DNA from: Escherichia phage HK106
Sequence record: NC_019768.1
DNA: 41,468 nucleotides
Direction: 5' to 3' (one strand)
The position numbers were made by a program, and so were the translations under genes. Position 1 is the stretch's first letter; every line of letters starts with the position of its first letter. The notes beneath the pieces are model-generated. The model was not told the DNA's origin, did no database searches, and saw only the letters and a list, made by a program, of their open reading frames with translations. Shown in pieces: positions 1-41,468 of the stretch.

Positions 1-486
1 ATGGCAGATAAACGAATCCGTTCCGACAGTTCGGCGGCAGCGGTTCAGGCCATGAAAAATGCAGCTGTGGACACCATCGATCCGCCGTCCCATGCAGGTT
101 TGGAGAAAAAAGCCGAACCATTCTGGCATGACAATATCAGATCGAAAGCTCTGGACAGCTGGACGCCTGCCGACCTTCTAGCCGCCGTAGAACTTGCTAA
201 TAATCAGCTCTATATCACCGTTTTACGCAAGGATTTACGCAAAGAAGAGCGCATACGCGGGGAGGAGCGAGACGAAGGCCTTATAAAAGACCTCCGCAAG
301 CAAATTGTTGAGCTACAACGAACTATCCTGGCTCAGCGCCGCGACCTCCAGATCCACTCCCACGCAACCAACGGCGAAAGTCGCGACCAGAAGAAACGTA
401 ATCAGAACGATCGTGATGCACGGAATACCAAAAACGAGCATCAGGACCAGGACGATAACCTGATCGCCTTTCCCAAGCACGGATAA
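1..486 (+). CDS. terminase small subunit (P27-family-like)
   Basis: 161-aa ORF with ATG at base 1, charged and coiled-coil rich, immediately upstream of the large terminase; order TerS-TerL-portal-protease-capsid as in HK97-like phages. Confidence 0.7.
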   Translation: MADKRIRSDSSAAAVQAMKNAAVDTIDPPSHAGLEKKAEPFWHDNIRSKALDSWTPADLLAAVELANNQLYITVLRKDLRKEERIRGEERDEGLIKDLRKQIVELQRTILAQRRDLQIHSHATNGESRDQKKRNQNDRDARNTKNEHQDQDDNLIAFPKHG

Positions 487-492
487 AAGACT

Positions 493-2007
493 ATGACGCG
501 AGGTGAGCGTGTAATAGCGTTCATTGAGCGCTTTTGCATCGTGCCAGAAGGCAAGCTTATCGGCCAACCTATGCGGTTGGACCCCTTTCAGAAAGATTTC
601 ATCCTGGCGGTTTACGACAATCCAGCCGGAACGGATATGGCGATCCTCTCCATCGCCCGAAAAAATGGTAAGACTGGCCTGATTGCCGGAATTCTGCTGG
701 CTCACCTGGTGGGGCCTGAAGCGGTGCAGAACACGCAGATTGTCAGCGGTGCACTCAGCCGGGAACAGGCGGCCATCGTTTTTAACCTCGCGGTGAAGAT
801 GGTTAACCTGAACCCCAAGCTGCAGGAGATTGTGCACATTACGCCCAGCGGCAAAAAGCTGATCGGCCTGCCGTGTAACGTCGAATACAAGGCTTTATCC
901 GCAGAAGGTAAGACGACGCACGGCCTTTCCCCCATTCTGGCCATTCTCGATGAAACAGGGCAGGTTAGGGGCCCGCAGGATGATTTTATCGATGCAATAA
1001 CTACGGCGCAGGGGGCTCATGAAAACCCGCTGCTAATCGTTATCAGTACGCAGGCAGCAAACGATGCTGACCTGCTTAGCATCTGGATTGATGATGCGGT
1101 CAAATCGAAAGATCCGCACATCGTGTGCCACGTTTATGAAGCGCCAAAAGACGCTGATATCAGTAAACGCGAGTCCTGGCTGGCTGCGAACCCGGCACTG
1201 GGAACATTCAGGTCAGAAAAAGACATGGCGCGCCAGGCTGAGAAAGCTGGCCGAATGCCAAGCTTCGAAAACACCTTCCGAAACCTCAACCTCAATCAGC
1301 GCGTGTCTACCGTATCGCCGTTTATCTCCCGCAGCGTGTGGGAGCTTTGCGGAGAGATGCCGATTAACACCCCGAGGAAGTGGTACGCGGGGCTGGATCT
1401 GTCAGCCAGGAACGACTTAACGGCGCTGGTTATCGCTGGTGAAGCAGATGATGGTGTCTGGGATGTTTTCCCCTTCTTCTGGACACCGCAAAAGACTCTT
1501 GAAGAGCGAACCAAAACGGACCGAGCACCCTATGACGTTTGGGTGAGGGAGGGGCTGCTGCGCACCACGCCAGGAGCTTCGGTGGATTACTCATTCGTCG
1601 TTGCGGATATCGCTGAAATTATCGGTGATTTCGACCTTACCTCGATGGCTTTTGACCGCTGGCGCATTGACCAGTTCAGGAAGGATGCCGATGCCATTGG
1701 GCTGAGCCTCCCGCTGGTCGAGTTCGGCCAGGGCTTTAAGGATATGGGGCCAGCTGTAGACACGCTGGAGTCTCTGATGCTTAACGGGCGCGTGAGGCAT
1801 GGCATGCACCCCGTATTAACGATGTGTGCTGTGAATGCGGTGGTGGTGAAAGATGCTGCTGGCAACCGCAAGCTCGATAAATCCAAAGCAACGGGCCGTA
1901 TTGATGGCATGGTCGCAATGACAATGTCCGTTGGTGCTGCTAATGGGGAAGTTACCGAACAGGGTGGTGACTTCGACGACTTCATTTTCCGACCGCTGAG
2001 CATGTGA
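493..2007 (+). CDS. terminase large subunit
   Basis: 504-aa ORF; ATPase-like segment (ILAILDETGQ) followed by a nuclease-like C-terminal half; position between TerS and portal. Confidence 0.85.
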   Translation: MTRGERVIAFIERFCIVPEGKLIGQPMRLDPFQKDFILAVYDNPAGTDMAILSIARKNGKTGLIAGILLAHLVGPEAVQNTQIVSGALSREQAAIVFNLAVKMVNLNPKLQEIVHITPSGKKLIGLPCNVEYKALSAEGKTTHGLSPILAILDETGQVRGPQDDFIDAITTAQGAHENPLLIVISTQAANDADLLSIWIDDAVKSKDPHIVCHVYEAPKDADISKRESWLAANPALGTFRSEKDMARQAEKAGRMPSFENTFRNLNLNQRVSTVSPFISRSVWELCGEMPINTPRKWYAGLDLSARNDLTALVIAGEADDGVWDVFPFFWTPQKTLEERTKTDRAPYDVWVREGLLRTTPGASVDYSFVVADIAEIIGDFDLTSMAFDRWRIDQFRKDADAIGLSLPLVEFGQGFKDMGPAVDTLESLMLNGRVRHGMHPVLTMCAVNAVVVKDAAGNRKLDKSKATGRIDGMVAMTMSVGAANGEVTEQGGDFDDFIFRPLSM

Positions 2008-3281
2008 TGGAAGAACCTAAATACACGATTGACCTGCGAACCAATAACGGCTGGTGGGCAAGGCTGCAGTCCTGGTTTGTCGGCGGGCGTTTAGTCACCC
2101 CAAATCAGGGCTCACAGACGGGGCCTGTTTCGGCCCACGGACACCTGGGCGATTCATCCATTAACGATGAACGGATACTGCAAATTTCGACTGTGTGGCG
2201 CTGCGTGAGCCTGATTTCAACGCTCACGGCATGCTTACCGCTTGATGTCTTCGAAACAGACCAGAATGACAACCGTAAAAAAGTGGATTTGAGCAATCCA
2301 CTGGCGCGACTGCTGCGCTACTCACCGAATCAGTACATGACCGCCCAAGAATTCAGGGAGGCCATGACGATGCAGCTCTGTTTCTACGGTAACGCATATG
2401 CACTTGTGGACCGCAACAGCGCAGGTGACGTGATCAGCCTTCTCCCGCTTCAGTCTGCCAATATGGATGTGAAGCTCGTCGGAAAAAAAGTGGTTTATCG
2501 CTATCAACGCGACAGCGAATACGCCGACTTTTCGCAGAAAGAGATTTTTCACCTTAAAGGCTTCGGATTCACCGGGCTTGTAGGCCTGTCACCCATTGCT
2601 TTTGCCTGTAAATCGGCAGGTGTGGCAGTTGCGATGGAGGACCAGCAGCGAGATTTCTTTGCCAACGGCGCCAAGTCTCCGCAAATCCTCTCAACTGGCG
2701 AAAAAGTGCTAACTGAACAGCAGCGCTCCCAGGTCGAAGAGAACTTCAAAGAGATCGCCGGCGGCCCGGTAAAAAAACGCCTCTGGATTCTGGAAGCGGG
2801 TTTTTCTACATCGGCAATTGGCGTAACTCCGCAGGATGCCGAAATGATGGCGTCCCGAAAATTTCAGGTAAGTGAACTGGCGCGATTCTTTGGCGTACCG
2901 CCTCACCTTGTCGGCGACGTCGAGAAATCAACGAGCTGGGGATCGGGCATCGAGCAGCAGAATCTCGGCTTCCTGCAGTACACCCTGCAGCCCTATATCT
3001 CCAGGTGGGAAAACAGCATTCAGCGGTGGCTTATTCCTGCTAAGGATGTTGGCCGCATTCATGCTGAGCACAACCTCGACGGCCTGCTGAGGGGCGATTC
3101 GGCATCCCGCGCTGCCTTTATGAAGGCAATGGGAGAGGCAGGGCTACGCACCATCAACGAGATGCGACGAACGGACAACCTCCCGCCATTGCCGGGTGGC
3201 GATGTGGCAATGCGCCAGTCGCAATACGTGCCGATCACCGATTTAGGAACCAACAAAGAGCCCCGTAATAACGGGGCTTAA
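2007..3281 (+). CDS. portal protein (HK97 family)
   Basis: about 424 aa; ATG at 2007 overlaps the terminase stop (TGATG); track start 2004 is GTG; size and position typical of HK97-type portal. Confidence 0.85.
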   Translation: MEEPKYTIDLRTNNGWWARLQSWFVGGRLVTPNQGSQTGPVSAHGHLGDSSINDERILQISTVWRCVSLISTLTACLPLDVFETDQNDNRKKVDLSNPLARLLRYSPNQYMTAQEFREAMTMQLCFYGNAYALVDRNSAGDVISLLPLQSANMDVKLVGKKVVYRYQRDSEYADFSQKEIFHLKGFGFTGLVGLSPIAFACKSAGVAVAMEDQQRDFFANGAKSPQILSTGEKVLTEQQRSQVEENFKEIAGGPVKKRLWILEAGFSTSAIGVTPQDAEMMASRKFQVSELARFFGVPPHLVGDVEKSTSWGSGIEQQNLGFLQYTLQPYISRWENSIQRWLIPAKDVGRIHAEHNLDGLLRGDSASRAAFMKAMGEAGLRTINEMRRTDNLPPLPGGDVAMRQSQYVPITDLGTNKEPRNNGA

Positions 3282-39622: not shown

Positions 39623-39765
39623 ATGTCCGCAGTAAACGCGCATCTCACGCGCATATTAACGAGAGCCTTTCAGTAAGCGAGCCTGAGAAATGCCGTTATA
39701 GGTGGCGACCTCTCTCGGGCGGCTTTTCTGTGAGACAGGCTCACTTTCTAAAAGGTAAAGACGCT

Positions 39766-40254
39766 ATGAACCAATTAGAAGAAAAGCTTCAAAGAATGAT
39801 TTCCTTATACAAGGAAGATAACTGCCAAAAAGTTCCTGAAAACATCGCAGAGTTAATGGAATTGGCAAGTGAATTTTCTGGCATGCTTAAGTCGTCAGGT
39901 GTTCGGTCAGCGTTCTTTGTTGAAATGCTGATGCACGGCGGACTTAGGGCAACAATGAGACGTGTAATGGAAGACCAGAGAAAAGAACCTCCTCAGGTAT
40001 ACGTTTTGTCATCGAAGAAAACTGGGCTAACCAAAATTGGGTATTCATCCAACATTCCACAACGCATCAAATCGCTTGGCAACTCTGGACCAGACTGCTT
40101 GAAGCTTGAGTGCCTGATCCCTGGTGGAAGAGAAACTGAAAACATGCTTCATCGCAAATTTGCCGCAAAGAGAAAGCACGGTGAATGGTTCGCCCTGTCC
40201 AAGGATGACATTGAGGGATTGAAATCTGTAGCGATTACTTCTGATGGCTATTAA
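39766..40254 (+). CDS. T5orf172-domain (GIY-YIG-like) protein, unknown function
   Basis: about 162 aa from ATG at 39766 (track start 39730 is GTG); C-terminal VYVLSS…KIGYSSN…R…E…HRKF…GEWF pattern of the T5orf172 / MUG113 domain. Confidence 0.6.
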   Translation: MNQLEEKLQRMISLYKEDNCQKVPENIAELMELASEFSGMLKSSGVRSAFFVEMLMHGGLRATMRRVMEDQRKEPPQVYVLSSKKTGLTKIGYSSNIPQRIKSLGNSGPDCLKLECLIPGGRETENMLHRKFAAKRKHGEWFALSKDDIEGLKSVAITSDGY

Positions 40255-40737
40255 TGCTTGTTTAGAGCAATTTTCATAACAACTCTTCATTCCAAAGCCC
40301 ATCTACGGGTGGGCTTGATAATGAAACCGTGATTTACATCCCTCACAATCCAGGTATGTAAAAGCTGGATCATGCGAGAACGGATTTAACTAAATCTGTG
40401 CGCCACCAGTTAACGGCAGCACCGCGAAACAACCCAAGCCAGTAAGTGGGGAAATAACACTGGCAGCCACTGAAAGATGAACCTCCTGCCTTATGGCAAA
40501 AAAGATTCTTTGTGGTGGCGGACTGATGGAAAGACATCGGTTATTGCAGAGACCATTCAATGAGTGGTCTCGACAATAGCTTATACCCTACACGGGATAA
40601 CTTAACTGATATCCCTTTTAACGGATAAACGGAGCCAACAATGGCAGAGATTATTCTCATGACTGAAGAACAGAAATTCCAGTTAGAGATTTACAAACTG
40701 GTCATGAACCAGAACGCCGCCGTGCATGGAGACTGGC

Positions 40738-41079
40738 ATGAACAAAGAGCCCCGCGTATATGGCAGCCGATGGGATAAGGCCCGTCTGCGTTTTCTCCAG
40801 CAGCACCCACTGTGTGTGATGTGCGAGCAGCAGGGGCGCATAACACCAGCAACGGTGGTCGACCATATCGTGCCCCACAAACTGAAAGATGCGCTTAAGT
40901 CAGGTAACCCTCTGGCCATATCGAAAGCACAGCTCCTGTTCTGGAGTAAAGAGAACTGGCAGCCACTGTGCAAAGCGCATCATGACTCAACGAAACAGAG
41001 AATGGAGAAGAGCGGCGCGGTAATCGGTTGTGATGCCAACGGCTACCCGCTCGATCCTGCGTCTCACTGGAGCACGTAA
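40738..41079 (+). CDS. HNH endonuclease (HK97 gp74-type, terminase-associated)
   Basis: about 113 aa from ATG at 40738 (SD GGAGA; in-frame ATG also at 40726); …CVMCEQQGRITPATVVDHIVPH…LCKAHH… HNH motif; last gene before the terminase genes. Confidence 0.8.
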   Translation: MNKEPRVYGSRWDKARLRFLQQHPLCVMCEQQGRITPATVVDHIVPHKLKDALKSGNPLAISKAQLLFWSKENWQPLCKAHHDSTKQRMEKSGAVIGCDANGYPLDPASHWST

Positions 41080-41282
41080 TGAAAGACCTCATCATTGAAT
41101 ACCGAGACGGTAAGTTTGTTCAGCTGGCGATTGATGGCGTGGAGATGAAGCGCGTAACGTCTATCCAGTTCTCCCACACCTTAGGCGAGGACGTACCGAC
41201 ATTGACCGTGTCAGGACATGTGTGGTCCGAGTATGGGAAAGGCGATCACAAACTCGAACAGGTAGACAAACATTCGGCATAG
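41079..41282 (+). CDS. hypothetical 67-aa protein
   Basis: ATG overlaps the HNH stop (TAATG). Confidence 0.45.
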   Translation: MKDLIIEYRDGKFVQLAIDGVEMKRVTSIQFSHTLGEDVPTLTVSGHVWSEYGKGDHKLEQVDKHSA

Positions 41283-41468
41283 CGCGGCGGCGGCAAGTAG
41301 ATTATCTATCATGTGAAATCATTTCAAATGCAACGATATCAAATGAGAATGAATCGCATTCAGGGCAGGGGGGGGGGATCAAATCTTCAAAACCTTTGCC
41401 CCAAATGACCGCCGCCAAAGTTTGAATTTAACGCTAACCCGATTTTTTTAGTTTTAAGGTGTTGACAT
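41283..41468. other. putative cos / packaging-initiation region containing a G10 tract
   Basis: non-coding stretch between the HNH gene block and the small terminase gene at position 1; homopolymer G10 at 41368-41377; the exact cleavage site cannot be read from sequence alone. Confidence 0.3.

Follow-up and report, generated by a model that had tools for sequence, protein, structure and literature searches.

Packaging genes at the two ends of the window

We analysed the 41,468-nt stretch of Escherichia phage HK106 in record NC_019768.1 (the whole stretch is hereafter called the window), focusing on its last part, where a gene for an HNH endonuclease is followed by a non-coding end that contains a run of ten G residues. 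The genes concerned, including an open reading frame (ORF) of 67 amino acids (aa), are located at the two ends of the window:

1-486, plus strand: terS, small terminase; protein 100% identical to HK97 gp1
493-2007, plus strand: terL, large terminase (ATPase and nuclease); protein 100% identical to HK97 gp2
2004-3281, plus strand: portal (Phage_portal, 1.3e-93)
40738-41079, plus strand: HNH endonuclease, HK97 gp74 homologue, assigned by Pfam, phrog and gp74 identity; another in-frame ATG at 40726
41079-41282, plus strand: 67-aa ORF of hypothetical function between the HNH gene and cos (phrog_10282 over the full length, 2.1e-47)

The record is rotated to the terS ATG, as are several mEp and HK records, and the real end is located 49 bp upstream; the window boundary is a convention of the depositor and no DNA end. 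In the circular or concatemeric genome, the gene order is HNH gene, 67-aa ORF, cos (about 41365-41455), terS and terL, and this packaging module is split by an arbitrary record boundary. An earlier reading of the window made from its letters (the sequence-only reading) had recognized terS and terL as the genes that open the window, as the matches to gp1 and gp2 bear out, and had placed the HNH gene across the genome end from them. This gene does lie across cos from terS and terL, but the boundary of the window is not a physical end.

TerL contains ATPase and nuclease domains (Pfam TerL_ATPase, 1.1e-12, and TerL_nuclease, 2.2e-35). TerS retains all of the DNA-contact residues reported for HK97 (K4, R5, R7, D9, R107, E126 and R128), and the PDB chains 8POP and 6Z6E match it over its full length. 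Downstream of terS, terL and the portal gene are genes for a prohead protease (Peptidase_S78, 1.6e-30) and an HK97-fold capsid protein (Phage_capsid, 2.1e-56). The HNH gene of the window co-occurs with HK97-type portal, prohead protease and major capsid protein genes.

Position of cos and its physical ends

The cos region was numbered such that +1 is window position 41420, which corresponds to base 1 of HK97, and window position 41419 corresponds to the last base of HK97. The features of the region are as follows (a slash marks a nick):

41365-41379 (-55..-41), plus strand: G-rich box (G-box), the left edge of the conserved cos core, containing G10
41381-41389 (-39..-31), plus strand: AAA(W)CTYYA block directly right of the G-box, from the profile of 46 relatives
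41408-41411 (-12..-9), no strand assigned: ACCG, which reads 5'-CG/GT-3' on the bottom strand across the nick
41409/41410, minus strand: bottom-strand nick, placed by the HK140 adaptor junction and the AsXd-1 and HK633 ends
41410-41419, plus strand: cohesive end CGCCGCCAAA, 10-nt 3' overhang, with which the records of HK97, HK022 and HK75 also end
41419/41420, plus strand: top-strand nick, placed by the HK97, HK022 and HK75 junctions and by record ends
41434-41448 (+15..+29), plus strand: minimal TerS binding site CTAACCCGATTTTTT, identical to the HK97 site

The records of HK97, HK022 and HK75 are written from the physical ends, with terS at base 50, and the junctions rebuilt from them are identical to the window for at least 40 bp on each side of 41419/41420. 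In the HK75 record, the last 10 nt, CGCCGCCAAA, carry the label 'cos site'. In the window, terS starts 49 nt past the top nick, and the stop codon of the HNH gene (41079) lies 340 nt before it. The HK140 record is flanked by an inverted 44-nt non-phage sequence, CCTATCCCCTGTGTGCCTTGAGAGACGCCGACTACTACGTCTCT, joined exactly at +1 and after -11, the first 20 nt of which we take to be 454 adaptor B. This flank (JQ086370/NC_019710; IMGVR_UViG_2595698462_000001) is a case of adaptor contamination in a public record, which here maps the blunt-ended virion termini. The AsXd-1 record spans +1 to -11, and the HK633 record ends at -11. From the ends of HK140, AsXd-1 and HK633, the nicks are therefore placed at 41419/41420 on the top strand and at 41409/41410 on the bottom strand. 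The overhang is assigned as 3' and not 5' because the same 10 nt are lost at both ends; 5' overhangs would be filled in and thus duplicated. A 10-nt 3' overhang has been described for HK97 (PMC11331095; Fig. 1 legend of PMC9410871), and the overhang numbers are swapped in the Discussion of PMC9410871, which gives '12-nt 3''.

The minimal TerS site of HK97 at +15..+29 was defined by electrophoretic mobility shift assay and cryo-electron microscopy (PMC11331095). As in HK97, the site in the window has T16, a C:G pair at 21 and a T-run at 24-29, and the block AACGCTAACCCGATTTTTT in this region was present with no more than one mismatch at all 14 of the 14 loci that were found through the TerS protein.

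The likeness to HK97 extends over the whole module: TerS and TerL are 100% identical, 101 of the 101 aligned HNH residues match, the gene order is the same, and the DNA is identical from about -42 to beyond +59. The last 869 nt of the window show 99.9% nucleotide identity to mEp234 and 98.8% to HK97 (over 40600-41419). The differences from HK97 are a G9 run versus the G10 run of the window, a few substitutions between -110 and -53, and the gene upstream of the module, which encodes the KilA-N protein gp73 in HK97 versus a T5orf172/MUG113 ORF in the window. The rest of the genome is a different, new mosaic: mEp234, as the best phage record, extends over 66% of the right half, and neither the phage collection nor 5,426 Escherichia coli genomes contained the entire window in a single record. 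The window end very probably represents an HK97-type cos packaging module, in which staggered nicks would generate the 10-nt 3' overhang CGCCGCCAAA, as the identity to HK97 and the ends of public records suggest. The module as such is already known, since it is the packaging machinery of HK97 in another mosaic genome. What appears to be new is the nucleotide-level position of cos, the G run as a variable form of a conserved box and the CG/GT match at the bottom nick.

The same two lines of evidence point to packaging rightwards from +1. With this direction, the motor would therefore meet the next cos from the HNH side, passing the G-box just before the nicks. Packaging by a headful mechanism into terminally redundant virions, with the cos-like sequence as a relic, is extremely improbable: the TerS and TerL proteins, the TerS site and the cohesive end are identical to those of HK97, a cos phage, and the HNH gene is intact. 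Judging from this identity of terminase and cos, headful packaging can be set aside for practical purposes.

Two further observations concern the cohesive end. An 8-nt perfect inverted repeat is formed by GGCGGCGG (41286-41293), located after the stop codon of the 67-aa ORF, and CCGCCGCC (41409-41416), which belongs to the cohesive-end sequence, the two arms being 115 nt apart. A role for this repeat was rejected, the left arm being present in HK97-like coliphages and absent from LAU1, ENT39118 and more distant relatives. In phage LMessi (PP925823; about 1290-1330 of the locus), a 26-nt segment that corresponds to cos -10..+16, including the cohesive end, is inverted between -13 and +6. Only this one of about 150 loci is so arranged, and the inversion probably arose during assembly as an artefact of folding back at the physical ends, with a real rearrangement as the alternative.

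The HNH endonuclease

The HNH ORF matches the Pfam family HNH (PF01844; E = 1.3e-5, 25.7 bits against a cut-off of 21.4) and phrog_2323, 'HNH endonuclease' (2.3e-52). The protein is 100% identical to its homologues in HK75 and mEp234 and agrees with HK97 gp74 at every aligned residue, as given above. The sequence-only reading had assigned a gp74-type HNH endonuclease to 40738-41079, and these matches confirm it. The motifs are intact (CxxC, as CVMC, at residues 30-33; DH at 46-47; N at 77; CxxH, as CKAH, at 82-85), and H86 corresponds to H82 of gp74. As the start codon, 40738 is likelier than 40726 because a GGAG sequence is present 6 nt upstream and the same start is annotated in HK97. An HNH homologue is located upstream of cos at 111 of 112 unique related loci, and the same contiguous order is found in prophages and in rotated records. 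Judging from its sequence, this protein can be regarded as gp74 itself for practical purposes. It consists of 113 aa with one CxxC...CxxH site only and does not contain the zinc ribbon that characterizes Groups 1 and 2. The closest solved structure by sequence, 5H0M, gave a weak match (E = 2.6e-4 over 40 residues).

According to PMC13595911, which cites Kala 2014, gp74 is indispensable for in vivo packaging and stimulates the cutting of cos by terminase; stimulation of TerL-dependent cos cleavage is also described in PMC9410871. The sequence-only reading had pointed out that in HK97-like phages this HNH protein is reported to be needed for terminase-mediated cos cleavage, which is consistent with these sources. 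For the window, a role in cos cleavage would follow from what is reported for the essentially identical HK97 protein.

The HK97 record itself (NC_002167, 39355-39413) contains a 1-nt deletion and a substitution, AAC-GCGACC versus AACGGCTACC, in the part equivalent to window 41040-41079. The deletion frameshifts the last 18 residues of gp74 relative to the window, HK022, HK75, mEp234 and all other relatives. The alternative C-terminus, GYPLDPxSHW, is also kept in other genera; because of this conservation, the HK97 record may contain a reference error, or the biochemically studied gp74 may carry a strain-specific mutation.

The sequence-only reading had also called the HNH gene the last sizeable gene. 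It is not the last ORF, as the conserved 67-aa ORF at 41079-41282 follows, its start codon overlapping the HNH stop codon. This ORF is annotated as hypothetical in HK75 and mEp234, is found at 63 of the 112 related loci and is absent where the HNH alignment ends just 73-147 nt before the nick; it is optional cargo. The chromosome of Symbiopectobacterium sp. RP contains three HNH-cos-terS copies. The two cos cores compared are identical, and the distance of 73 nt from HNH to nick is the shortest seen.

The G run and a conserved G-rich box

The G run occupies exactly 41368-41377, as the sequence-only reading had stated, and comprises ten G residues at -52..-43. It is the longest homopolymer of the window, in which all others are at most 8 nt long, and only about 0.03 G runs of at least ten are expected per window from the base composition. 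That reading had suggested the run as the cos neighbourhood or as a site prone to sequencing error. The non-coding end is indeed the cos region, but the run is not at the cut, lying 33-42 bp left of the bottom nick. The proposal that 41283-41468 is non-coding also holds, with no conserved coding potential in this part. Coding through the G run (ORFs 41222-41425 and 41313-41408) was rejected, since the run lengths found in relatives (7, 8, 9, 10, 11 and 13) would not preserve a reading frame, their differences not being divisible by three.

Through the TerS protein (identity from 98% down to 53%), 20 loci were gathered, which belong to Enterobacter, Pantoea, Rahnella, Serratia, Dryocola, Buttiauxella, Symbiopectobacterium, Providencia, Yersinia and Gilliamella. 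A further 120 loci were gathered through TerS-site DNA, and 46 non-redundant representatives were profiled. Between about -50 and +36, the alignment of these representatives is entirely gap-free. Upstream of -56, the information content amounts to about 0.1 bit, and it increases sharply from there, values that overstate independent conservation in that the representatives are akin to one another. In the G-box, G is invariant at -47 and -46 and has a frequency of at least 0.93 at -49 and -48, and only purines occur at -50, -44 and -42. To its right, AAA at -39..-37 is invariant or nearly so, and CTYYA follows at -35..-31, with C at -35, T at -34 and A at -31 at frequencies of 0.74-0.93; GCCC is conserved at -22..-19. 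At the 14 TerS-protein loci, which come from 10 genera, the G fraction is 0.81 at -52..-42 versus 0.19 and 0.14 on the two sides of it; the 11-mer richest in G lies within -55..-39 in every case. Identity to the window across genera is 0.73 in the G-box, 0.32 upstream and 0.58 downstream.

From these comparisons, we infer that a conserved G-rich box takes on a local, pure-G form in the window, namely the G10 run. This box would represent the left boundary of an indel-free cos core of about 86 bp, because the HNH alignment can end only 73 nt before the nick, which leaves no room for more to the left of the box. At these most compact loci, the end of the HNH alignment is 73 nt away from the top nick and some 15-20 nt to the left of the G-box.

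The length of the run differs even among near-identical relatives: it is G9 in HK97 and HK022, G10 in the window, G11 in mEp234 and G13 in HK75, and 42 IMG/VR contigs contain G7 (8 contigs), G8 (19), G9 (10), G10, G11 and G13 (one each) and G8C (two). Such variation from G7 to G13 would be expected if the run were a neutral, slippage-prone homopolymer or partly a sequencing artefact that has no packaging role and merely sits in the spacer near cos. Several of the relatives' genomes come from 454 sequencing, which is weak on homopolymers and to which the adaptor remnant of HK140 also points. In addition, no published function for the G run was found in the HK97 packaging literature, a search outside which the primary gp74 papers and Juhala et al. 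2000 lie. This explanation accounts for the length variation but not for the conservation across genera: in 10 genera with unalignable flanks, the ungapped distance between box and nick stays the same, and two of its G residues, at -47 and -46, never vary among the representatives. Furthermore, among the matches listed, copies of one phage agree in matched length, and this holds for mEp234, mEpX1 and mEpX2 with their separate PV3405xx records as well. We therefore regard neutrality or artefact as unlikely. The warning about sequencing error in the sequence-only reading was justified insofar as the length varies among relatives, but the G-rich element conserved across genera is not just noise. 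Slippage of the G run would be tolerated, because it moves only the unconserved DNA upstream.

It is also conceivable that the G-box acts as RNA or as a single strand, for example as a hairpin of the late transcript formed with a downstream pyrimidine stretch (CCTTTGCCCC or CTTC), and thereby affects mRNA stability or terS expression. The RNA fold of 41283-41468 is stable (-54.9 kcal/mol, z = -2.7), with the G run paired with -27..-19, and the -62..-12 segments of 47 relatives fold better than shuffled sequences (mean z = -2.3). Covariation is absent, though: outer stem pairs are formed at 0.54 versus 0.44-0.54 in slid controls (47 relatives), only one-sided changes occur in the inner stem, and the G count is uncorrelated with the C count (rho 0.06). 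Moreover, 11 representatives without a C run still have 7-9 G, and a Rfam scan of two related cos-spanning loci gave no match at E up to 1. An RNA element would not need a fixed spacing to the nick and the TerS site either. Such a function is thus quite improbable, and a role of the G-box at the level of DNA is preferred.

An intramolecular G-quadruplex was considered by inspection and rejected, because the G9 of HK97 and the preceding GGG cannot make four GGG runs and the potential is not conserved. AT-rich palindromes are present left of the G-box within the 41310-41360 region (TGAAAT-C-ATTTCA at 41314-41326 and GAATG-AATCG-CATTC at 41348-41362) and recur in varied form in relatives from Enterobacteriaceae (ATGAGAAT.ATTCTCAT and AAACGAGAA...TTCTCGTTT). 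These palindromes (TGAAAT.N.ATTTCA and ATGAGA..TCTCAT) were rejected as a candidate element, given their modest enrichment over shuffles (mean best arm 5.4 versus 4.4) and their unfixed positions.

The nick motif and a possible division of strand cutting

The bottom strand at 41409/41410 reads 5'-GGCG/GTCA-3', so that a CG/GT motif is present at a natural cut site. N.phiGamma, N.phiE2 and N.phi105, which are terminase-adjacent HNH nickases of Bacillus and Geobacillus phages, nick CG/GT or YG/GTY (PMC3592412). Among the representatives, ACC at -12..-10 is invariant and G at -9 has a frequency of 0.91. The top nick lies in variable sequence, with C or G at +1 and T or C at +2. Chechik et al. offer two models for the overhang, in one of which HNH cuts one strand and TerL the other (PMC11331095), and the asymmetry between the two nicks agrees with that model. 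Because the bottom nick sits in the invariant ACCG, which reads CG/GT, the HNH protein would be the better candidate for cutting the bottom strand. The top nick is more likely to be set by the distance from TerS and cut by TerL, because it lies in variable sequence.

The likeness to the N.phiGamma-type enzymes consists of a gene that adjoins cos and terminase and of the CG/GT (AC^CG) or YG/GTY specificity that matches the bottom nick of the window. It differs in that those enzymes have a zinc ribbon, whereas the gp74-type proteins of Group 3 do not. Because gp74 is without this ribbon, we do not classify the window protein as an N.phiGamma-type member, and the likeness is one of nick motif only.

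Comparison with other cos sites and a proposed mechanism

The arrangement resembles that of lambda cos, in which an upstream element on the side packaged last is followed by the nick site and then by the TerS site downstream. The two sites differ in their parts. The overhang is 5' and 12 nt long in lambda but 3' and 10 nt long in the window, and lambda lacks an HNH protein, whereas the window encodes an HNH accessory nuclease. The cosQ of lambda measures 7 bp, and its cosB extends over 120 bp and comprises three R sites plus integration host factor; in the window, the G-rich box measures about 10-15 bp and there is one TerS site of 15 bp. In lambda, nicking of the downstream cos at termination requires cosQ (PMC4669245). 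The corresponding position in the window, on the side packaged last and upstream of the nicks, is occupied by the G-box, which keeps a fixed register in the 46 representatives and 10 genera; its likeness to cosQ is one of position. Most likely, the G-box is a cos sub-site that functions at the level of DNA on the side packaged last, positioned like cosQ of lambda. It may also have a role in positioning the nucleases at initiation.

A second parallel is found in the pac1 and pac2 elements of herpesviruses, where G-rich and T-rich elements lie at a fixed distance around the cleavage site and pac2 has a CGCGGCG motif beside a T-rich stretch (PMC13595911). The counterparts in the window, which are in fixed register, are the G-box, the nick region with CCGCCGCC and the T-run within the TerS site. 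The viruses, the proteins and the scale are different, and this is an analogy only, with no claim of homology.

TerS at its site has been shown to stall the motor at cos (PMC11331095; PMC9410871). For the assembly at termination, PMC10359639 places the nuclease ring immediately beneath the portal, with about 25 bp of DNA filling the TerL tunnel and the cut being made at the TerL-portal interface. On this basis, TerS bound at 41434-41448 would stall the motor at cos, and the HNH protein would stimulate TerL-dependent cleavage. With the nicks at the TerL-portal interface, +1..+25 would be in the tunnel, abutting TerS at +15..+29, and the G-box would be 32-42 bp further in, presumably inside the portal channel. 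The HNH protein would cut the bottom strand by sequence and TerL the top strand at a distance set by the TerS roadblock.

In its full form, the proposal is that the G-box is a previously undescribed cosQ-like sub-site, required for efficient termination or cleavage and located in the portal channel at the time cos arrives at the TerL nuclease, that ACCG marks a sequence-specific bottom nick by HNH, and that TerL makes a distance-set top nick. We put this combination forward tentatively, as falling somewhat short of probable. Several points weigh against the explanation given here as a whole, in addition to the kinship among the representatives described above. The cos ends of this phage are placed by identity to relatives. 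The G-box is outside the published minimal TerS site (+15..+29), in vitro stalling depends on TerS, and no mention of the G-box was found in the HK97 packaging literature covered by the search described above. As for the nucleases, gp74 falls into Group 3, whose members have no zinc ribbon at the N-terminus, and PMC3592412 describes it as non-specific in vitro, with a preference for Ni, and assigns no nick specificity to it. Finally, a route to the overhang by TerL only is rated equally possible by Chechik et al. (PMC11331095).

Flanking regions of the module

A mosaic junction at about 40712, just upstream of the HNH gene, is common to ECP1, HK542 and HK633. Because of this position, the HNH-cos-terminase block seems to be exchanged as one unit. 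A 45-aa ORF (40641-40778, plus strand) overlaps the start of the HNH gene by 41 nt in another frame; it shows a full-length match to phrog_23132 (3e-38) and also matches Pfam DUF2560 in the N-terminal third of that family. A 174-aa ORF (39730-40254, plus strand) that contains T5orf172 and MUG113 domains (Pfam, 1.4e-10 and 5.7e-15) is positioned between the lysis genes and the HNH module. Its place is taken in HK97 by the KilA-N protein gp73, and it looks like exchangeable cargo. A promoter and terminator scan of 40500-41468 yielded none in the non-coding part, with counts at the level of shuffled sequences, and did not reproduce the minus-strand promoter annotated in mEp234.

Implications for HK97-type packaging

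Exact cos coordinates are now given for the terS-rotated records of the HK97-type family. The comparative data also define the extent of the cos core, about -55 to +36 and free of indels, together with a G-rich element outside the minimal TerS site, in a major model system of DNA packaging. The ACCG sequence, with its CG/GT match, offers a testable answer to the open question in the literature of which nuclease cuts which strand to give the 3' overhang. If the joint reading of the G-box and ACCG is true, it would explain how the 10-nt 3' overhang arises.

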